Source of the DNA: Escherichia coli
GTDB lineage: Bacteria; Pseudomonadota; Gammaproteobacteria; Enterobacterales; Enterobacteriaceae
Assembly (NCBI RefSeq): GCF_003790525.1
Contig: NZ_CP033635.1
Direction: 5' to 3' (one strand)
Length of the DNA stretch: 64,000 nucleotides
In this document: positions 48,836 to 58,493 of the stretch, one piece after another
How the letters are laid out: each line of letters opens with the position of its first letter
Position numbering within the stretch: position 1 is the first letter of the stretch
The notes under the pieces: generated by a model
Told to the model about the DNA's origin: nothing
The model's database searches: none
What the model saw: only the letters and a program-made list of their open reading frames with translations
Translations under genes and position numbers: made by a program

Positions 48836-50527
48836 ATGAAAACGCTGCTGATTATTGACGCTAATCTCGGTCAGGCACGCGCCTATATGGCGAAGACCCT
48901 GCTGGGCGCGGCGGCGCGAAAAGCAAAACTGGAAATCATCGACAATCCGAACGACGCAGAAATGGCGATTGTTCTCGGTGATTCCATCCCGAATGACAGC
49001 GCGCTGAACGGTAAAAATGTCTGGCTGGGCGATATTTCCCGGGCAGTTGCGCACCCTGAGCTGTTCCTGAGTGAAGCCAAAGGCCATGCGAAACCTTACA
49101 CTGCGCCGGTCGCTGCGACAGCACCGGTTGCCGCCAGCGGTCCGAAACGCGTAGTTGCGGTGACTGCTTGCCCGACTGGCGTAGCACACACCTTTATGGC
49201 GGCTGAAGCCATTGAAACCGAAGCGAAAAAACGTGGCTGGTGGGTGAAAGTTGAAACCCGTGGTTCTGTTGGCGCGGGTAATGCAATCACCCCTGAAGAA
49301 GTCGCAGCAGCGGATCTGGTGATTGTGGCGGCAGATATCGAAGTGGATCTGGCGAAATTTGCTGGTAAACCGATGTATCGCACCTCTACCGGTCTGGCGC
49401 TGAAGAAAACTGCGCAGGAACTGGATAAAGCGGTTGCTGAAGCAACGCCGTATGAACCAGCGGGCAAAGCTCAAACAGCGACCACTGAAGGTAAGAAAGA
49501 GAGTGCAGGCGCTTACCGTCACTTGCTGACGGGCGTCTCTTACATGCTGCCGATGGTCGTTGCAGGTGGTCTGTGTATCGCGCTTTCTTTTGCTTTTGGT
49601 ATCGAAGCGTTTAAAGAGCCGGGTACGTTGGCTGCGGCGCTGATGCAGATTGGTGGTGGTTCAGCCTTTGCGTTGATGGTGCCGGTACTGGCAGGTTATA
49701 TTGCCTTTTCCATTGCCGATCGTCCGGGTCTCACGCCGGGTCTGATTGGCGGTATGCTGGCGGTCAGCACCGGTTCTGGCTTCATTGGCGGTATTATTGC
49801 GGGCTTCCTGGCTGGTTACATTGCGAAGTTAATCAGTACGCAATTGAAACTGCCACAGAGTATGGAGGCGCTGAAACCGATTCTGATCATTCCGCTAATT
49901 TCCAGTCTGGTGGTCGGTCTGGCGATGATCTACCTGATCGGTAAACCGGTTGCTGGCATTCTCGAAGGGTTGACTCACTGGCTGCAGACCATGGGGACTG
50001 CGAATGCGGTTCTGCTGGGGGCGATCCTCGGTGGCATGATGTGTACTGACATGGGCGGTCCGGTAAACAAAGCAGCGTACGCATTCGGTGTGGGTCTGCT
50101 GAGTACTCAAACCTATGGCCCGATGGCGGCGATTATGGCGGCAGGTATGGTGCCACCGCTGGCAATGGGCCTGGCAACAATGGTGGCGCGTCGCAAATTC
50201 GACAAGGCGCAGCAGGAAGGGGGCAAAGCTGCTCTGGTACTGGGACTGTGCTTTATTTCGGAAGGTGCAATTCCGTTTGCTGCCCGTGATCCGATGCGTG
50301 TGCTGCCGTGCTGTATCGTGGGTGGGGCGCTGACTGGCGCAATCTCAATGGCGATTGGTGCGAAACTGATGGCACCGCACGGTGGTCTGTTTGTTCTGCT
50401 GATCCCTGGCGCGATTACGCCGGTATTGGGTTACCTGGTAGCCATTATTGCCGGTACGCTGGTGGCGGGGTTGGCCTATGCCTTCCTGAAACGTCCGGAA
50501 GTGGACGCAGTAGCGAAAGCAGCGTAA
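48836..50527 (+). CDS. fruA: Fructose PTS EIIB'BC component
   Basis: 563-aa ORF; two EIIB-like domains followed by a polytopic EIIC domain. Confidence 0.95.
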   Translation: MKTLLIIDANLGQARAYMAKTLLGAAARKAKLEIIDNPNDAEMAIVLGDSIPNDSALNGKNVWLGDISRAVAHPELFLSEAKGHAKPYTAPVAATAPVAASGPKRVVAVTACPTGVAHTFMAAEAIETEAKKRGWWVKVETRGSVGAGNAITPEEVAAADLVIVAADIEVDLAKFAGKPMYRTSTGLALKKTAQELDKAVAEATPYEPAGKAQTATTEGKKESAGAYRHLLTGVSYMLPMVVAGGLCIALSFAFGIEAFKEPGTLAAALMQIGGGSAFALMVPVLAGYIAFSIADRPGLTPGLIGGMLAVSTGSGFIGGIIAGFLAGYIAKLISTQLKLPQSMEALKPILIIPLISSLVVGLAMIYLIGKPVAGILEGLTHWLQTMGTANAVLLGAILGGMMCTDMGGPVNKAAYAFGVGLLSTQTYGPMAAIMAAGMVPPLAMGLATMVARRKFDKAQQEGGKAALVLGLCFISEGAIPFAARDPMRVLPCCIVGGALTGAISMAIGAKLMAPHGGLFVLLIPGAITPVLGYLVAIIAGTLVAGLAYAFLKRPEVDAVAKAA

Positions 50528-50537
50528 TAAAAGGTGT

Positions 50538-50710
50538 GTTACAGGGCAGAAATTTCCTGCCCTGTAACATTTGATGAGCGCAAAGGGAATGACCGGTTTG
50601 TGAATGTAATTTTATGAATTTAAATGGTTTTATCTTTTAGTGGAAACCTGAAACTTTCATCAAACACTAAGGTTATTTCCTCAAGGGCAGATTAATTTCT
50701 GCCCTTTTTT
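50538..50710 (+). terminator. fruA 3' region: perfect 11-bp stem hairpin (about 50538..50568) and a canonical Rho-independent terminator (about 50683..50710)
   Basis: gttacagggcag-aaatttc-ctgccctgtaac, then agggcag-attaattt-ctgccct followed by TTTTTT. Confidence 0.6.
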
Positions 50711-50950
50711 AGTGTTCCTGTTCTGTGCATCCCGTCACAAATTCCCCGTTTTTATAATTCAGGCATTTAATCGCGTTTTGTGAGCCTGCTCAAATCTGCC
50801 CATTTTGCCTCTCTGGCGGTAATTTACTTTACGTAAAACATGCATACTATGAGCACATGTTTAAATATGAACACATGTTTAAACCGTCTTTGCAGTATCA
50901 ATATTCTTGTGGATTGACAGGGTTGGTAATTTTTTACCAGAGGACGTGCT

Positions 50951-51892
50951 ATGCGCGAAAAGGATTATGTCGTAATTATAGGTTCGGCGAATATTGATGT
51001 CGCCGGATATTCACATGAATCATTAAATTATGCGGATTCAAATCCAGGTAAAATAAAATTTACGCCTGGTGGGGTAGGGCGCAATATTGCACAAAACCTG
51101 GCGTTGCTGGGTAATAAAGCCTGGCTACTGAGCGCCGTAGGCAGTGATTTTTATGGCCAATCGCTGCTAACGCAAACCAATCAATCTGGCGTTTATGTCG
51201 ATAAATGCCTGATTGTGCCGGGAGAAAATACGTCGAGCTATTTATCATTACTCGATAATACCGGTGAAATGCTGGTTGCTATAAATGACATGAATATTAG
51301 CAACGCTATTACAGCTGAATATCTCGCACAGCACCGTGAATTTATTCAGAGGGCAAAGGTCATTGTCGCGGACTGTAATATCAGTGAAGAGGCACTGGCA
51401 TGGATTCTGGATAATGCCGCCAACGTACCCGTATTTGTCGATCCGGTTTCAGCGTGGAAATGTGTCAAAGTGCGCGACCGTCTAAATCAAATCCACACTC
51501 TCAAGCCAAACCGCCTTGAAGCGGAAACCCTGAGTGGGATTGCGCTGTCAGGGCGTGAAGATGTGGCAAAGGTTGCCGCCTGGTTCCATCAACATGGCCT
51601 GAACCGACTGGTATTGAGCATGGGCGGCGACGGCGTTTATTACAGTGATATCAGCGGTGAAAGTGGTTGGTCTGCGCCGATCAAAACCAATGTCATTAAT
51701 GTTACCGGAGCGGGCGATGCCATGATGGCGGGACTTGCTTCGTGTTGGGTAGACGGAATGCCGTTTGCCGAATCTGTTCGTTTCGCACAGGGATGTTCGT
51801 CAATGGCGCTCTCCTGTGAATACACCAATAACCCCGATTTATCGATTGCCAACGTTATATCGTTAGTGGAGAACGTAGAATGTCTGAATTAA
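50951..51892 (+). CDS. psuK: Pseudouridine kinase (PfkB family)
   Basis: 313-aa ORF; PfkB signatures PGGVGRNIAQNLALLG and GAGDAMMAG. Confidence 0.9.
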   Translation: MREKDYVVIIGSANIDVAGYSHESLNYADSNPGKIKFTPGGVGRNIAQNLALLGNKAWLLSAVGSDFYGQSLLTQTNQSGVYVDKCLIVPGENTSSYLSLLDNTGEMLVAINDMNISNAITAEYLAQHREFIQRAKVIVADCNISEEALAWILDNAANVPVFVDPVSAWKCVKVRDRLNQIHTLKPNRLEAETLSGIALSGREDVAKVAAWFHQHGLNRLVLSMGGDGVYYSDISGESGWSAPIKTNVINVTGAGDAMMAGLASCWVDGMPFAESVRFAQGCSSMALSCEYTNNPDLSIANVISLVENVECLN

Positions 51893-52818
51893 AAATTTCC
51901 CCTGAATTATTACAAATCTCCCCGGAAGTGCAGGACGCTTTAAAAAACAAAAAACCGGTTGTGGCGCTGGAATCGACTATTATTTCTCACGGGATGCCGT
52001 TCCCACAAAATGCCCAGACCGCAATTGAAGTTGAAGAAACTATTCGTAAACAGGGCGCTGTACCTGCCACTATCGCCATTATTGGCGGCGTGATGAAAGT
52101 GGGTTTAAGCAAAGAAGAAATTGAATTGCTGGGTCGCGAAGGGCATAACGTGACCAAAGTTAGTCGTCGCGATTTACCTTTTGTCGTTGCCGCCGGAAAA
52201 AATGGCGCAACCACTGTGGCTTCAACGATGATTATTGCGGCGCTTGCCGGAATTAAAGTATTTGCCACCGGGGGAATTGGTGGTGTGCATCGCGGGGCGG
52301 AACATACCTTCGATATTTCTGCCGATTTGCAAGAACTGGCAAATACTAATGTCACCGTTGTTTGTGCCGGTGCAAAATCTATTCTCGATTTAGGATTAAC
52401 AACAGAATATTTAGAAACCTTCGGTGTGCCGTTAATTGGCTATCAGACAAAAGCGCTGCCTGCGTTTTTCTGCCGTACCAGCCCATTTGAAGTTAGTATT
52501 CGCCTTGATAGTGCCACGGAAATCGCTCGTGCAATGGCGGTGAAATGGCAAAGCGGTCTGAACGGTGGCCTGGTGGTGGCAAATCCGATCCCGGAACAGT
52601 TTGCGATGCCGGAGGAATCTATCAATGCAGCCATAGATCAAGCCGTCGCCGAAGCCGAAGAGCAGGGCGTTATTGGTAAAGAAAGCACACCGTTCCTGCT
52701 GGCTCGTGTTGCTGAACTGACTGGCGGTGACAGCCTGAAATCCAACATCCAACTGGTGTTCAACAACGCCATTCTGGCGAGCGAAATTGCCAAAGAATAC
52801 CAGCGTCTCGCGGGTTAA
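51880..52818 (+). CDS. psuG: Pseudouridine-5'-phosphate glycosidase
   Basis: 312-aa ORF overlapping the psuK end. Confidence 0.9.
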   Translation: MSELKISPELLQISPEVQDALKNKKPVVALESTIISHGMPFPQNAQTAIEVEETIRKQGAVPATIAIIGGVMKVGLSKEEIELLGREGHNVTKVSRRDLPFVVAAGKNGATTVASTMIIAALAGIKVFATGGIGGVHRGAEHTFDISADLQELANTNVTVVCAGAKSILDLGLTTEYLETFGVPLIGYQTKALPAFFCRTSPFEVSIRLDSATEIARAMAVKWQSGLNGGLVVANPIPEQFAMPEESINAAIDQAVAEAEEQGVIGKESTPFLLARVAELTGGDSLKSNIQLVFNNAILASEIAKEYQRLAG

Positions 52819-52911
52819 TTTCTGACGGGCAGAAAGCCGTCGCCCGTACTGATCATACATACCAAAACCTGGCGCTGACGCCGGGTTTACTGGCATGAAG
52901 GGAAAATCATT

Positions 52912-54162
52912 ATGGATATAATGAGAAGTGTTGTGGGGATGGTGGTGTTACTGGCAATAGCATTTTTGTTGTCAGTGAATAAAAAGAGCATCAGTTTGCG
53001 CACGGTTGGAGCCGCGTTGCTGCTACAAATCGCCATTGGCGGAATCATGCTCTATTTTCCACCAGGAAAATGGGCGGTAGAACAGGCGGCATTAGGCGTT
53101 CATAAAGTGATGTCTTACAGTGATGCCGGTAGCGCCTTCATTTTTGGTTCGCTGGTTGGGCCGAAAATGGATGTCCTCTTTGACGGTGCGGGTTTTATCT
53201 TCGCCTTTCGCGTACTCCCGGCGATTATCTTCGTCACTGCGCTCATTAGTCTGCTGTACTACATTGGCGTGATGGGGCTGCTGATTCGCATCCTTGGCAG
53301 CATTTTCCAGAAAGCCCTCAACATCAGCAAAATCGAATCTTTTGTTGCGGTTACCACTATTTTCCTCGGGCAAAATGAGATCCCGGCGATCGTTAAACCG
53401 TTTATCGATCGCATGAATCGCAACGAGTTGTTTACCGCAATTTGTAGCGGGATGGCGTCCATTGCGGGTTCGATGATGATTGGTTATGCCGGAATGGGCG
53501 TACCAATTGACTACCTGTTAGCGGCATCGCTGATGGCGATCCCTGGCGGGATTTTGTTTGCACGTATTCTTAGCCCGGCAACCGAGCCTTCGCAGGTCAC
53601 ATTTGAAAATTTATCGTTCAGCGAAACGCCGCCAAAAAGCTTTATCGAAGCGGCGGCGAGCGGTGCGATGACCGGGCTGAAAATCGCCGCTGGTGTGGCG
53701 ACGGTGGTAATGGTATTTGTGGCAATTATTGCGCTGATCAACGGCATTATCGGCGGAATTGGCGGCTGGTTTGGCTTCGCCAATGCTTCTCTGGAAAGTA
53801 TTTTTGGCTATGTGCTGGCACCGCTGGCGTGGATCATGGGTGTGGACTGGAGTGATGCCAACCTTGCGGGTAGCCTGATTGGGCAGAAACTGGCAATTAA
53901 CGAATTCGTCGCTTACCTGAGTTTCTCCCCATACCTGCAAACGGGCGGCACGCTGGAAGTGAAAACCATTGCGATTATCTCCTTTGCGCTTTGTGGTTTT
54001 GCTAACTTTGGTTCTATCGGTGTTGTCGTTGGGGCATTTTCGGCTATTTCGCCAAAACGCGCACCGGAAATCGCTCAGCTTGGTTTACGGGCGCTGGCAG
54101 CAGCAACGCTTTCCAACCTGATGAGCGCGACCATTGCCGGGTTCTTTATTGGTTTAGCTTGA
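52912..54162 (+). CDS. psuT: NupC-family nucleoside permease (putative pseudouridine transporter)
   Basis: 416-aa polytopic ORF; near-identical paralog of the ORF at 56099..57349. Confidence 0.9.
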   Translation: MDIMRSVVGMVVLLAIAFLLSVNKKSISLRTVGAALLLQIAIGGIMLYFPPGKWAVEQAALGVHKVMSYSDAGSAFIFGSLVGPKMDVLFDGAGFIFAFRVLPAIIFVTALISLLYYIGVMGLLIRILGSIFQKALNISKIESFVAVTTIFLGQNEIPAIVKPFIDRMNRNELFTAICSGMASIAGSMMIGYAGMGVPIDYLLAASLMAIPGGILFARILSPATEPSQVTFENLSFSETPPKSFIEAAASGAMTGLKIAAGVATVVMVFVAIIALINGIIGGIGGWFGFANASLESIFGYVLAPLAWIMGVDWSDANLAGSLIGQKLAINEFVAYLSFSPYLQTGGTLEVKTIAIISFALCGFANFGSIGVVVGAFSAISPKRAPEIAQLGLRALAAATLSNLMSATIAGFFIGLA

Positions 54163-54229: not shown

Positions 54230-54889
54230 TTACTGCATCATCCCGGAGAATTTATTCTCCGGGTCCATCTCCAGCGCCAGTCCTGACAACTGCTTTCTGT
54301 TTTTAATTAGATATCCTTTCTTGCTTTTAATTAATAAACCGTCGTGAATGAATTGCGCGAGAACATATAAAAGATGTCGATAAGAAACGCCTAAATACTC
54401 TGCCGCTTGCGTATGCTTTTCGTGATAAAGATCACCTTCTTGTGAGAGTAATATAAATGCTGCCAGGCGATTCACTAACGGAAATGATTGATTCTGAGTT
54501 AAAGAAACAATATTGCGATAATTTTTATGGCTTAAACTAACGCAGAGTTTTCGTAAAAATAGCGTGTCGTTTAATAACAGCGGACGGTAATGTTTCATGG
54601 GGAGTGCAAGGCACCAACACTCTTCAATCGCCTGCACCGCACGTGGTTCATGGTCTTTATCGATTAACTCAATCTCACCAATAAAACAGGGGGCGGCAAA
54701 GAAATCGATCAGCGACACGCGACCATTAGCAAGCGTGGCGTAAAGCCTGGCGCGGCCTCGCGTCAGGTAAAACAGCCATGACGGCTGTTGCCCTTCCTGC
54801 ACAATGTAGTCACGTGCTAAAAAATGAAACAGCCGTGCATCGGCTGAAACATCCGTTGAAAAGCAATCCTTAAACGCGGATTCACTCAT
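54230..54889 (-). CDS. yeiL: Crp/Fnr-family transcriptional regulator YeiL
   Basis: ORF 54230..54928; cNMP-binding-like domain plus C-terminal HTH; start trimmed to MSESAFKD (219 aa), uncertain. Confidence 0.88.
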
Positions 54890-55057
54890 CAATTGCTGCT
54901 TAAGATCATTATTGTGGATTTCTTTCACGATATTTATCCGCTATGAGATTTCTCATATTTAGCATACGTACGCTGTTGTTAAGATTCAATCATCGGCCCG
55001 GTCGAATTTTCTTTGCTGTAGAAAAAATAACGCAACTGGAAACAGAGGAAATAAACA

Positions 55058-55999
55058 ATGGAAAAGAGAAAAATTATTCTGGATTGTGATCCGGGTCATG
55101 ATGATGCTATTGCAATGATGATGGCAGCGAAACATCCGGCGATTGATTTATTAGGTATCACCATTGTAGCGGGTAATCAGACGCTTGATAAAACATTAAT
55201 TAATGGCCTGAATGTTTGCCAGAAACTGGAGATTAATGTTCCGGTTTATGCGGGGATGCCACAACCCATTATGCGGCAACAAATCGTTGCCGATAATATT
55301 CACGGTGAAACCGGACTGGATGGCCCGGTATTCGAGCCGCTGACCCGCCAGGCAGAAAGCACTCATGCGGTGAAATATATCATCGATACCCTGATGGCAA
55401 GCGATGGCGATATCACTCTGGTGCCGGTTGGTCCGCTTTCAAATATCGCGGTGGCAATGCGTATGCAGCCCGCGATCCTGCCAAAAATCCGTGAAATTGT
55501 ACTGATGGGCGGCGCTTATGGTACTGGCAACTTCACGCCATCTGCCGAGTTCAACATCTTTGCGGACCCGGAAGCGGCGCGAGTGGTGTTCACCTCCGGC
55601 GTTCCATTAGTGATGATGGGCCTCGATCTCACCAACCAGACCGTTTGCACCCCGGACGTGATTGCTAGGATGGAAAGGGCAGGCGGCCCCGCCGGAGAGC
55701 TGTTCAGCGACATCATGAACTTCACTCTGAAAACGCAGTTCGAAAACTACGGTCTGGCTGGCGGCCCGGTACATGACGCCACCTGTATCGGTTATCTGAT
55801 TAACCCCGATGGCATTAAAACCCAGGAGATGTACGTCGAAGTGGATGTTAACAGTGGCCCTTGCTATGGGCGTACCGTCTGCGACGAGCTGGGCGTTCTT
55901 GGCAAGCCCGCCAATACCAAAGTCGGCATCACTATTGATACCGACTGGTTCTGGGGATTAGTCGAAGAGTGCGTGCGCGGCTACATCAAAACCCATTAA
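55058..55999 (+). CDS. rihB: Pyrimidine-specific ribonucleoside hydrolase RihB
   Basis: 313-aa ORF; nucleoside-hydrolase N-terminal Asp cluster DCDPGHDDA. Confidence 0.92.
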
Positions 56000-56098
56000 G
56001 TGTTGATAACAAGCCGGGACAGTATCGCAAGATGCAGGCCCGGCGATTTCTGATGGGCAGAAAGCCGTCGCCCAAAATGACATGAAGAGATAATAACT

Positions 56099-57349
56099 AT
56101 GGATGTCATGAGAAGTGTTCTGGGAATGGTGGTATTGCTGGCAATTGCATTTTTGCTGTCAGTAAACAAGAAGAGGATCAGCCTGCGTACCGTTGGCGCG
56201 GCGTTAGTGTTACAGGTCGTGATTGGCGGCATTATGCTTTGGTTACCGCCAGGGCGTTGGGTCGCTGAAAAAGTCGCTTTTGGCGTCCATAAAGTGATGG
56301 CGTACAGCGACGCGGGTAGCGCATTTATCTTCGGTTCGCTGGTCGGGCCGAAAATGGACACGCTGTTTGATGGTGCAGGATTTATCTTTGGTTTCAGAGT
56401 ATTACCGGCAATTATCTTCGTCACCGCGCTGGTGAGTATTCTCTACTACATCGGTGTGATGGGGATCTTAATTCGCATTCTCGGCGGTATCTTCCAGAAA
56501 GCATTAAATATCAGCAAGATCGAGTCATTCGTCGCGGTCACTACCATTTTCCTCGGGCAAAACGAAATTCCGGCAATCGTCAAACCCTTTATCGATCGGC
56601 TGAATCGCAATGAATTATTTACAGCGATTTGTAGTGGCATGGCCTCGATTGCTGGTTCGACAATGATTGGTTACGCCGCACTGGGCGTACCTGTGGAATA
56701 TTTGCTGGCGGCATCGTTAATGGCGATCCCAGGCGGGATCTTGTTTGCCCGCCTGTTAAGCCCGGCTACGGAATCTTCGCAGGTTTCTTTTAATAACCTC
56801 TCTTTCACCGAAACACCGCCAAAAAGTATTATTGAGGCCGCTGCGACAGGGGCAATGACCGGGCTGAAAATCGCTGCGGGTGTGGCAACAGTGGTGATGG
56901 CATTTGTTGCCATCATTGCGTTAATTAACGGTATTATCGGCGGCGTTGGCGGCTGGTTTGGTTTTGAGCAAGCCTCGCTGGAGTCCATTTTAGGTTATCT
57001 GCTGGCCCCGCTGGCGTGGGTGATGGGGGTTGACTGGAGTGATGCAAATCTTGCCGGGAGTTTGATTGGGCAGAAGTTGGCGATCAATGAATTTGTCGCT
57101 TACCTCAATTTCTCACCTTATCTGCAAACAGCTGGCACGCTCGATGCTAAAACCGTGGCGATTATTTCCTTCGCGTTGTGCGGTTTCGCTAACTTTGGTT
57201 CTATCGGGGTAGTGGTTGGGGCATTTTCTGCGGTTGCGCCACACCGCGCGCCGGAAATCGCCCAGCTTGGTTTACGCGCGCTGGCGGCGGCGACACTTTC
57301 TAACCTGATGAGTGCCACCATTGCAGGATTCTTTATTGGCTTAGCGTAG
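56099..57349 (+). CDS. nupX: NupC-family nucleoside permease NupX
   Basis: 416-aa polytopic ORF, paralog of psuT. Confidence 0.92.
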   Translation: MDVMRSVLGMVVLLAIAFLLSVNKKRISLRTVGAALVLQVVIGGIMLWLPPGRWVAEKVAFGVHKVMAYSDAGSAFIFGSLVGPKMDTLFDGAGFIFGFRVLPAIIFVTALVSILYYIGVMGILIRILGGIFQKALNISKIESFVAVTTIFLGQNEIPAIVKPFIDRLNRNELFTAICSGMASIAGSTMIGYAALGVPVEYLLAASLMAIPGGILFARLLSPATESSQVSFNNLSFTETPPKSIIEAAATGAMTGLKIAAGVATVVMAFVAIIALINGIIGGVGGWFGFEQASLESILGYLLAPLAWVMGVDWSDANLAGSLIGQKLAINEFVAYLNFSPYLQTAGTLDAKTVAIISFALCGFANFGSIGVVVGAFSAVAPHRAPEIAQLGLRALAAATLSNLMSATIAGFFIGLA

Positions 57350-57404: not shown

Positions 57405-58493
57405 TTACACCATCGGCACTAATGAAAGCGCGTTATCGGCAGACAGGGTAGGGTTGTTTAAGCTGCCGCTGGCGCGTGAAATTGCCGCGCAGGCCATCGC
57501 AAAACGGGCGCTGTCACGGAAACTGCTTCCTTCCAGAAAGCTATACACCAGGCCCGCCATAAAACCATCGTCAGCACCAAAACTGTCTACCGTCGTATGC
57601 GCTGGCGCAGTCAGCAAAAATTGTTCGCCATCCTTTTGGCTGCAATAAACAGACTCATCGGGCAAATAAACAAACAGTTGCTGAACGCCTTGCTGATGCA
57701 ACGCATTCACTGCGGCATTACGATCAGCATCGCGGGTTATCGGCTGGCCCCATAAAATTTCCAGCTCCGACAAAGTGGGTTTCAGAGTGTGAATATGCGC
57801 CAGCCAGTGTTTGATTTTGCCCGCTTTGAATTCTGAAACGGTATCGACAAACACCGGGATTTCATCAGCGAGGGTAAAGACCCATTCCAGCGCCTCGGCT
57901 GTCAGGTTACAATCTGCCAGTACCACGCCCGCATGACGAAGTAAATCGCGCGACCCGTTCAGTAGTTGCGGTGTCAACTGATCCAGCAGATGGGTATCGT
58001 TAATCGCCAGCACGGTTTGATCGTCTCGATTGGCAATTGCCAGATACGTCGATGTGCTTTGACCATGTAAACGAACGCAGCCGGAGACATTCACGCCGGC
58101 GCGGCGCGTTTCTTCCAGGAGCATTTCGCCATAAAAGTCATCGCCAATCACTGAAAGCAAATGAACGTCGCGGCCTAACAGCGCCAGATTGTGGGCGATA
58201 TTGCGTCCAACGCCGCCTGCCGAGCAATGAATGGTACCGGGATGAGAAGCCGCTTGCGGGTAACGGATATCCGCCATCCCGCGAATATCCATATTGATTG
58301 TCCCCACCACTACGCAGTATTCCTGCTCGGTGAGAATGTAACCTTTGCCTTTAATCCGTCCTTTGCGCATTAAATCCATAATATGCGCTGCAACACGCGA
58401 ACGGCTGATTTGCAGCATATCCGCAATTTCGTTCTGCTGAATCAGCGGGTTACGCCTTAATATTGCAAGGATCTCCTTCTCCCGGTTATTCAT
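57405..58493 (-). CDS. yeiI: Uncharacterised fusion protein: N-terminal winged-helix HTH + PfkB-family kinase
   Basis: 362-aa ORF; N-terminal HTH (EILAILRRNPLIQQNEIADMLQISRSRVAAHI) then PfkB kinase domain (AGGVGRNIAHNLALLG, GADDGFMAG) paralogous to PsuK. Confidence 0.88.
   Translation of the reverse strand: MNNREKEILAILRRNPLIQQNEIADMLQISRSRVAAHIMDLMRKGRIKGKGYILTEQEYCVVVGTINMDIRGMADIRYPQAASHPGTIHCSAGGVGRNIAHNLALLGRDVHLLSVIGDDFYGEMLLEETRRAGVNVSGCVRLHGQSTSTYLAIANRDDQTVLAINDTHLLDQLTPQLLNGSRDLLRHAGVVLADCNLTAEALEWVFTLADEIPVFVDTVSEFKAGKIKHWLAHIHTLKPTLSELEILWGQPITRDADRNAAVNALHQQGVQQLFVYLPDESVYCSQKDGEQFLLTAPAHTTVDSFGADDGFMAGLVYSFLEGSSFRDSARFAMACAAISRASGSLNNPTLSADNALSLVPMV

Follow-up and report, generated by a model that had tools for sequence, protein, structure and literature searches.

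Two conserved palindromic boxes at the psuK promoter of Escherichia coli: a putative operator pair with YeiI as candidate regulator

Which protein controls psuKGT, the operon through which Escherichia coli uses pseudouridine, and do the tandem repeats upstream of its first gene belong to that control? The question was pursued on a 64,000-nucleotide stretch of E. coli DNA (contig NZ_CP033635.1 of assembly GCF_003790525.1, hereafter the window), in which a first-pass annotation had predicted that two repeats in the fruA-psuK spacer form an operator pair for a regulator of psuKGT. In the searchable literature we found no specific regulator assigned to psuKGT, no binding data for YeiI, which is one of the remaining orphan predicted transcription factors of E. 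coli K-12, and no earlier description of a paired psuK operator. Comparative evidence, namely the invariance of the repeat cores, their palindromic pattern of variation, their position and their recurrence in other taxa, supports the predicted operator pair, and we consider it rather probable that the repeats contain two operator boxes at which YeiI represses psuKGT.

The spacer, put at about 420 bp by the first-pass annotation, measures 423 bp between the fruA stop (50527) and the psuK ATG (50951), and the two repeat copies described as lying about 70 to 100 bp upstream of psuK were recovered as 13-mers at 50853-50865 and 50871-50883, that is, 98-68 bp from the ATG. Over its full 423 bp the spacer agrees at 100% with E. 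coli SMS-3-5 (NC_010498.1), the strain to which the window belongs. Both copies carry the internal palindrome ACATGT, and the related sequence reported to precede them is ACATGCATAC at 50838-50847. Tandem Repeats Finder detected a single array in the spacer, with a period of 18 (2.0 copies, 94% match, 50848-50883) in line with the announced spacing of about 18 bp; unit 1, TATGAGCACATGTTTAAA (50848-50865), and unit 2, TATGAACACATGTTTAAA (50866-50883), are identical at 17 of 18 positions and differ in one base. The motif search proposed for the repeat, run on the window, located the 12-mer CACATGTTTAAA at these two sites only. The description of the repeat unit needed amendment: the direct repeat is real, but what is conserved is a palindrome of 10-14 bp rather than the 13-mer. 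This became apparent from an alignment of the 200 bp 5' of psuK from 12 sequences (mean identity 76%); the underlying scan for PsuK, with one genome per species, gave 11 loci from Escherichia species, E. albertii, Citrobacter, a metagenome-assembled genome (MAG) labelled Raoultella, and Buttiauxella. The operon and the repeat elements are as follows.

50951-54162, plus strand: operon of psuK (50951-51892), psuG (51880-52818) and psuT (52912-54162), from open reading frames (ORFs), RefSeq annotation and the Pfam PfkB assignment.
50848-50883, plus strand: 18-bp tandem repeat, head to tail, with the unit TATGA(G/A)CACATGTTTAAA; a single-unit variant occurs in strain EA7.
50850-50863, no strand: box 1, TGAGCACATGTTTA, with the core AGCACATGTT at 50852-50861, centred on the predicted +1; the core is present in all 12 aligned sequences.
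50868-50881, no strand: box 2, TGAACACATGTTTA, with the core AACACATGTT at 50870-50879, centred at about +18.5 and 18 bp from box 1; conserved in the alignment.

Invariant positions of the alignment cluster in four blocks: a CRP-like site (TTGTGA-N6-TCA.ATCT, window 50778-50797), the -35 element (ATTTAC.TT), a spacer block together with the -10 element (AAAC..GC.TA..AT), and the two boxes, whose cores, 18 bp apart, read A-R-C-A-Y-R-T-G-T-T and G-A-A-C-A-Y-R-T-G-Y-T. The central dinucleotide of the boxes is only CA, TG, CG or TA, and thus always pyrimidine-purine; since CA and TG are mutual reverse complements, the centre varies in the way that a dyad-symmetric protein site permits. Perfect palindromes are found in the Raoultella-labelled MAG (AACACGTGTT), E. 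albertii (GAACATATGTTC) and Shewanella (CAAACATATGTTTG), and the extended arms of the boxes, T-R-AACA..TGTT-Y-A, show the dyad symmetry expected of an operator. Two AACA-YR-TGTT cores at a spacing of 18 bp follow the -10 element in Escherichia, Citrobacter, Buttiauxella, Enterobacter and a Salmonella island; in the latter two box 1 is strong and box 2 degenerate, at the same 18-bp offset. The recurrence of this spacing in five genera argues that the psuK boxes are more than chance. The window contains one other exact AACAYRTGTT (35232), which lies inside a 364-amino-acid ORF, is within chance expectation and was set aside, and a scan of the 64 kb found no exact box upstream of rihB, nupX, yeiL, nfo or yeiI.

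Within E. coli, the 71-mer spanning the boxes (50820-50890) is identical in 3270 of the 4212 genomes of this allele class; for a control 71-mer within this spacer the figure is only 366 of 3292. About 22% of complete E. coli genomes, of B2 type (about 1,200 of 5,426), carry a divergent fruA 3' end, spacer and psuK that megablast does not align, which looks like an old recombination tract; one such genome has the CRP-like site, TTTACA, TATTAT and the boxes TGAACATGTGTTTA and TGAACACGTGCTCT. The B2-type allele is E. albertii-like and has a spacer of 455 bp, including a sequence resembling a repetitive extragenic palindromic element. The near-perfect 18-bp direct repeat is confined to the lineage of non-B2 E. 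coli and E. whittamii, outside which the boxes share only (G)AACA-YR-TG(T/C)T. Because paired boxes occur in other genera and in the B2 allele, we read the identity of the units at 17 of 18 positions as a derived homogenisation, the ancestral state being two related palindromes.

Could the repeat instead be a neutral duplication of 18 bp by strand slippage? The lineage-specific unit identity, where other genera have similarity in the cores only, would fit such an origin, and so would strain EA7, in which a clean 18-bp deletion has left one unit (an IS5 element lies just 5' of the CRP-like site), showing that the array can slip. Yet boxes paired at 18 bp predate the homogenisation, as seen in five genera and in the B2 allele, the segment is far better conserved within E. 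coli than the control segment, and the two units are fully covered in 4206 of 4212 genomes, with merely 6 lacking full-length coverage. We give a neutral origin hardly any probability, and as an explanation of the boxes it is largely refuted by the cross-genus conservation. A variable-number tandem repeat, or contingency locus, was rejected with the same figures: 4206 of 4212 genomes cover both units, and among the genomes with partial coverage the one examined, EA7, retains one unit. IS200-family insertions were seen in the spacer of two further strains.

The boxes stand in a promoter whose elements were recognised as follows.

50823-50828, plus strand: -35 hexamer TTTACT; TTTAC is invariant in the alignment, and 50825 is the site of a recurrent T to G change (TTGACT).
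50845-50850, plus strand: -10 hexamer TACTAT, 16 bp after the -35 hexamer; T95 A96 .. A99 T100 are invariant in the alignment.
50835-50843, plus strand: conserved block AAAACATGC in the spacer between the hexamers; A86 A87 A88 C89 G92 C93 are invariant in the alignment.
50779-50794, plus strand: CRP-like site TGTGAGCCTGCTCAAA (TGTGA-N6-TCAWA), the sole match to this pattern in the window.

From the geometry of the hexamers, transcription is predicted to start near 50857 (or 50858), so that the boxes begin 2 bp after the -10 hexamer and lie over the start, with centres at about +1 and +18.5; this would place them in the zone from about -15 to +30 that is typical of repressor operators. Taken as 50857 +/- 2, the predicted start corresponds to about 2259390 in K-12 (NC_000913.3). 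The block AAAACATGC, which overlaps ACATGCATAC, is possibly a third, partial box (AACA-YG) 15 bp 5' of box 1. Judged by its elements, TTTACT, a 16-bp spacer and TACTAT, the core promoter of psuKGT is expected to be intrinsically weak.

Evolution experiments have repeatedly hit this promoter, one and the same change sweeping through mouse-gut populations again and again. In the mouse gut, work from the Gordo laboratory reported an A to C substitution at 2257444 (NC_000913.2) in old and young mice (PMC7518454) and an A to C substitution in the psuK/fruA spacer in 5 of 7 mice (PMC9509342, Supplementary Data 7); the authors assigned the single-nucleotide polymorphism (SNP) to the psuK promoter and linked it to altered psuK expression and a raised growth rate. 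For a 1,200-day stationary-phase culture, breseq lists the same A to C change as intergenic (-126/+297), and it was present in 3 of 4 parallel cultures, yet was also polymorphic in the parental stocks (PMC7858067). Alignment shows K-12 and the window to be identical from 50775 to the ATG bar one base, the sole indel lying further upstream, and since no indel falls between 50775 and the ATG, the -126 SNP corresponds to window position 50825. On the sense strand the change is T to G and converts TTTACT to TTGACT. We infer that the SNP works through a better -35 element, because it is always the one same base, because the authors report an effect on expression, and because both hexamers are invariant across genera. 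The TTGACT allele is also present at 100% identity in five complete genomes, those of the K-12 laboratory derivatives S17-1, ST18, ER1821R and ER2683 and of a pigeon isolate.

The CRP-like site TGTGAGCCTGCTCAAA agrees with the consensus TGTGA-N6-TCACA at 9 of 10 positions. Its block TTGTGA...TCA.ATCT is invariant in the 12 aligned sequences and is also found in Enterobacter and the Salmonella island, and its left half-site is invariant in all species compared. Class I CRP sites are centred near -61.5, -71.5, -82.5 or -92.5, and the centre of this site (50786.5) lies at -70.5 to -71.5 from the predicted start at 50857-50858. The psuKGT promoter probably needs cyclic AMP (cAMP)-CRP bound about 71 bp upstream, in what would be a class I position; no mention of psuK, or yeiC, as a CRP target was found in the searchable literature.

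We were also interested in whether the boxes might act in the transcript rather than on the DNA, through a role of the psuK leader in 5'-end stability, translation or small-RNA targeting. In E. coli an inverted repeat is detected between the units, the second half of unit 1 pairing with unit 2 in an 11-bp hairpin (GUUUAAAUAUG / CAUGUUUAAAC); the minimum free energy structure of the predicted leader contains this hairpin, and the RNAalifold consensus retains a 5-bp version of it. In addition, RIL-seq and TRIC-seq both list psuK among the targets of the small RNA RprA (bioRxiv 10.1101/2025.09.11.675593). However, the predicted start (about 50857) would leave the left arm of box 1 untranscribed, and that arm is conserved all the same, the long hairpin is confined to the homogenised allele of E. 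coli, complementarity arises automatically between any two palindromic boxes, and taxa with a single box, introduced below, are unable to form the hairpin, while a palindrome with a 2-nt centre cannot itself fold as an RNA hairpin. A scan of 50450-51050 with Rfam 15 gave nothing above threshold, the two sub-threshold matches being chance matches outside the repeats, and an unrestricted duplex calculation between the predicted psuK leader and RprA gave -43.9 kcal/mol, a value equalled by 24% of shuffles and hence uninformative, and showed no convincing pairing site. An RNA-level role thus strikes us as quite improbable, and an operator pair on the DNA remains the reading that we prefer.

Which protein, then, would bind the boxes? 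The gene considered the most likely source of the binder lies in the same window.

57405-58493, minus strand: yeiI, the candidate regulator, encoding a winged helix-turn-helix (wHTH; residues 1-48) and a PfkB domain resembling pseudouridine kinase.

Pfam assigns YeiI an HTH_24 domain (41.2 bits, cut-off 21.9) and a PfkB domain (230 bits), and in NCBIfam pseudouridine kinase ranks second, after the protein's own family. The AlphaFold (AF2) model, with a predicted local distance difference test score (pLDDT) of 89, shows three helices and a wing (residues 1-55) followed by a kinase fold, for which Foldseek returned E. coli PsuK structures as the closest solved ones (template modelling score 0.95, root-mean-square deviation 1.7 A), none of them with a helix-turn-helix (HTH). 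Compared with ten kinases, YeiI departs at 18 of 67 otherwise invariant positions, and the changes include N187 to T in the NxxE motif, the second Gly of GAGD (to GADD) and the DSN motif. NxxE and GAGD are established catalytic signatures of the PfkB family, and because both are altered, YeiI looks like a ligand-binding pseudokinase. PsuK residues S30, N143 and K170, which are responsible for pseudouridine affinity and specificity (PMC9061257), are retained in YeiI. A psuK mutant with intact yeiI was unable to use pseudouridine (PMC12506659).

The yeiI gene accompanies the operon. In the window, psuK-psuG-psuT is followed by the convergent yeiL, then rihB and nupX, and by yeiI, which is convergent with the operon and downstream of nfo. 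In E. albertii, Citrobacter, Buttiauxella, Enterobacter and the Salmonella island, a convergent yeiI directly follows psuT, and yeiI is linked to psuKGT in all genomes examined in which kinase and HTH protein are encoded by separate genes (split type). The yeiL-rihB-nupX block (54230-57349) stands between psuT and yeiI in E. coli and its closest relatives only; as yeiI directly follows psuT elsewhere, the block is best seen as a lineage-specific insertion into a psu/yeiI module. On the Salmonella enterica contig, yeiI / psuT-psuG-psuK is surrounded by toxin-antitoxin and transposase genes, with yeiL absent, and this different, mobile context implies that the four genes travel as a unit, suggesting their joint horizontal transfer. 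The neighbours of the Salmonella module are a relBE-type toxin-antitoxin pair, transposases and a pyrimidine-nucleoside phosphorylase gene. In both E. coli and Enterobacter the start of yeiI falls 2 bp beyond the stop codon of nfo, the endonuclease IV gene encoded on the same strand, so that the two genes may be co-transcribed.

Homologues of YeiI are widespread, and their gene contexts carry much of the argument. In seven distant contexts out of seven, from Yersinia, Serratia, Xenorhabdus, Pasteurella, Shewanella, Aliivibrio and a Ruminococcaceae bacterium, a wHTH-PfkB gene is followed at once by psuG and usually then by a nucleoside transporter gene; in these fused-type taxa the gene of the HTH-bearing protein stands in for psuK at the head of the psu operon. 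In the kinase part, the Yersinia and Pasteurella fusions share 57-60% identity with E. coli PsuK, and YeiI compared with the gammaproteobacterial fusions is 64-71% identical in the HTH and 38-47% in the kinase domain (43-47% for the kinase part of Yersinia and Pasteurella), which marks the HTH as a domain under constraint. Within 300 bp upstream, the exact sequence AACANNTGTT occurs in 5 of the 7 fused-type operons, whereas 5000 dinucleotide-preserving shuffles gave a mean of 0.12 and a maximum of 2 regions with it, none reaching 5. All six fused-type Gammaproteobacteria have the palindrome upstream, five of them in exact form: as pairs in Shewanella (CAAACATATGTTTG and TAAACAAAAGTTTG, 19 bp apart), Aliivibrio (GAACATATGTTTG and AAACAATAGTT, 19 bp apart) and Pasteurella (AAACAGGTGTTG and AAACAAAAGTTG, 18 bp apart), and, in Yersinia, Serratia and Xenorhabdus, as one extended palindrome each, of the type AACCAAACA-NN-TGTTTGGTT. 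The latter three also have in common a conserved stretch CTTACGATC...CTTTACT at about -80 to -110 from the start of the wHTH-psuK gene, in the long interval that separates this start from the single box. As negative controls served three psuK-psuG-psuT operons whose kinase lacks an HTH and which have no wHTH-PfkB gene within 7 kb (Aeromonas, a Bartonella species and a Pasteurellaceae MAG), and no exact box was found in them. Counted by genus, 10 of the 12 that have the HTH possess the exact box, and none of the 3 operons lacking the HTH does (Fisher exact p of about 0.02, calculated by hand on a small sample). Taken together with the domain architecture, these patterns make YeiI the most likely candidate binder of the psuK boxes.

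The working model that follows rests on sequence analysis, that is, on the anatomy and conservation of the boxes, the position of the adaptive -35 SNP, the domains of YeiI, the gene linkage and the co-occurrence of box and wHTH, from which the exact start, the CRP dependence, YeiI as the binder, repression and the identity of the inducer are deduced. The operator consensus would be (T/C)(G/A)AACA-YR-TGTT(T)(G/A), with two boxes 18 bp centre to centre over the start. PfkB enzymes are typically dimers, and YeiI, probably as paired dimers, would sit on both boxes and exclude RNA polymerase, until pseudouridine or its 5'-phosphate, bound in the kinase-like domain, makes it release the DNA. The weak promoter would then probably need cAMP-CRP about 71 bp upstream, and the T to G SNP, by creating a near-consensus -35 element, would let polymerase compete better and depend less on CRP.

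Several observations weigh against this model. In the evolution experiments the repressors FrlR, DgoR, SrlR and GlpR were lost through many different mutations in frlR, dgoR, srlR and glpR, which derepressed the catabolic operons concerned, whereas at psuK only the single -35 SNP recurs, and the parts of the supplements of the evolution papers available to us list no mutation in yeiI, yeiL, psuG, psuT or the operator. Missing yeiI mutations are unexpected if losing the YeiI repressor sufficed to raise psuK expression. Derepression alone may be insufficient at so weak a promoter, or pseudouridine may already be inducing in those environments, but YeiI could also act as something other than a simple repressor, or another protein could be the binder. 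A spacing of 18 bp would place two dimers on different faces of the helix, which makes the oligomeric arrangement hard to read, and autoregulation of yeiI finds no backing in a box: neither the 3' end of nfo nor, in the Salmonella island, the region 5' of yeiI contains one. The single box of Yersinia, Serratia and Xenorhabdus lies some 250-285 bp 5' of the annotated start, the Ruminococcaceae operon has a box with one mismatch only, and the co-occurrence argument is weakened by the few lineages sampled, some of them related. Moreover, the searchable literature contains no characterisation of YeiI.

The same observations leave some room for a real operator with another factor or mode of action: a DeoR/GlpR-type repressor on TGTT-N8-AACA, YeiL, an unlinked factor, or YeiI acting as activator or anti-activator. 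Conservation of the boxes shows only that something binds, the lack of yeiI mutations just mentioned would fit such a factor, yeiL lies next to psuKGT in E. coli, and the inter-box sequence TGTTTAAATATGAACA resembles the DeoR (TGTTAGAATTCTAACA) and GlpR (TGTTCGATAACGAACA) operators, with 11-12 of 16 positions matching. On the other hand, Yersinia, Serratia and Xenorhabdus, with their single boxes, carry AACA-N2-TGTT and no TGTT-N8-AACA, the box tracks a wHTH on or beside the kinase, and a box position of +1 to +30 is atypical of an activator. YeiL, a member of the CRP/FNR family, is a poor candidate for the binder: E. albertii, Citrobacter, Buttiauxella and Enterobacter lack yeiL-rihB-nupX at this locus and nevertheless conserve the boxes. 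On balance we regard another factor or mode as unlikely, if clearly less so than an RNA-level role, and continue to favour repression by YeiI.

Other known sites and origins were considered and discarded. A PhoP box, TGTTTA-N5-TGTTTA with an 11-bp period, does not fit, as TGTTTA here recurs after 12 nt (18-bp period) and its second copy is not conserved outside E. coli. There are no conserved TGCAA octamers as for CytR and no CTGT-N8-ACAG as for E. coli LexA, the match of E. albertii box 2 to the Gram-positive Cheo box is a coincidence, and only ACACGTGTT is shared with the FabR site. A relic of an HTH in the psuK leader was also looked for: tblastn extended 5' of the ATG in some Citrobacter loci, with in-frame stops and no convincing similarity.

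We further speculate that the wHTH-PfkB proteins form a family of one-component regulators, derived from an enzyme, that control pseudouridine catabolism. The fused kinase of Yersinia, Pasteurella, Shewanella, Aliivibrio and some Firmicutes would be a bifunctional kinase and autorepressor acting at AACA-N2-TGTT, and in the Escherichia-Citrobacter-Enterobacter group a duplication would have split it into the HTH-less enzyme PsuK and the pseudokinase YeiI, which senses pseudouridine and represses psuKGT. To this wider scenario we attach about even credence.

Two further elements of the spacer were recognised.

50683-50712, plus strand: fruA terminator hairpin with a T-tract, from a terminator scan; a homologous GGGCAGA...TCTGCCC-T6 follows fruA in Buttiauxella and Enterobacter.
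50924-50939, plus strand: leader hairpin TGGTAA-TTTT-TTACCA, from the RNAalifold consensus; it abuts the Shine-Dalgarno sequence AGAGGA (50939-50944).

A second hairpin 3' of fruA (50537-50569) has the same GGGCAGA..TCTGCCC arm and lacks the T-tract. This hairpin and about 140 bp between the two hairpins are an addition specific to Escherichia/E. coli and make up much of the spacer, whereas the hairpin with the T-tract is conserved in other genera. The unusual length noted in the first-pass annotation is genuine: terminator hairpins of fruA, lineage-specific insertions, a leader of about 94 nt and the promoter, including the CRP-like site upstream of it, together fill the spacer. In the leader hairpin the fourth pair is U-A in E. 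coli, C-G in Citrobacter and Buttiauxella, and G.U in E. albertii, and the exchange between genera suggests a conserved RNA structure in the psuK leader, or possibly another DNA palindrome.

The cis element proposed here would be of an ordinary kind: two palindromes that form an operator at a catabolic promoter probably dependent on CRP. It offers a mechanistic frame for a mutation that is highly reproducible in the mouse gut and in long starvation, namely a -35 up-mutation in a weak, probably CRP-dependent and apparently operator-controlled promoter, and suggests that E. coli normally keeps pseudouridine from RNA turnover tightly off limits. In several clinical isolates exposed to ciprofloxacin, PsuG and PsuK ranked among the proteins most strongly under-expressed in the recA mutants, with log2 fold changes as low as -6 (PMC11039860); this under-expression indicates that their induction depends on RecA, possibly via pseudouridine released by lysis. 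Should the fused proteins combine kinase and repressor activity, they would add another case of an enzyme moonlighting as its own regulator, and PsuK and YeiI, if the duplication scenario is true, would represent a clean subfunctionalisation into enzyme and pseudoenzyme sensor. The box together with YeiI could serve as a pseudouridine-responsive biosensor for strains engineered to make pseudouridine.

How does the proposed system compare with known ones? Ribose-5-phosphate and a pyrimidine are products of the psu pathway and of the deo regulon alike, which gives the psu system a likeness to DeoR/GlpR control; in contrast, the conserved symmetric unit here is AACA-N2-TGTT, and no DeoR-family gene is linked to the operon. 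With the lac, deo and gal promoters the psuK promoter would share a weak core, an upstream CRP site, an operator over the start and -35 up-mutations that bypass control, except that the CRP site, the start and the repressor of psuK are predictions; the 64-kb window showed neither an auxiliary distant operator nor a looping partner.

The ROK repressors NagC, Mlc and XylR resemble YeiI in combining an N-terminal winged helix with a domain derived from a sugar kinase. Their sensor domain binds a substrate or product of the pathway without needing catalysis, as would be expected of YeiI by analogy, and their operators are palindromic, often paired, overlap catabolic promoters and are co-regulated by CRP, like the arrangement proposed for psuK. 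Unlike them, YeiI has the PfkB (ribokinase) fold and not that of ROK/ASKHA, gives no ROK hit in Pfam or NCBIfam, and is associated with an unrelated box sequence; a further contrast is that many bacteria keep the HTH on the working kinase gene of the psu operon. That last arrangement recalls BirA and NadR, in which one polypeptide is both an enzyme and the regulator of its own operon and a wHTH binds the operator under control of the enzyme's ligand, as we would by analogy expect of the fused taxa. BirA and NadR have other enzyme folds and follow another logic: biotinyl-AMP acts as co-repressor in a biosynthetic pathway, while the ligand here would be expected to induce catabolism. With its PfkB-fold sensor, YeiI is accordingly not a member of the ROK, BirA or NadR family, and in E. 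coli the two roles appear to be split between PsuK, an enzyme with no HTH, and YeiI, which has the HTH and degenerate NxxE and GAGD motifs.

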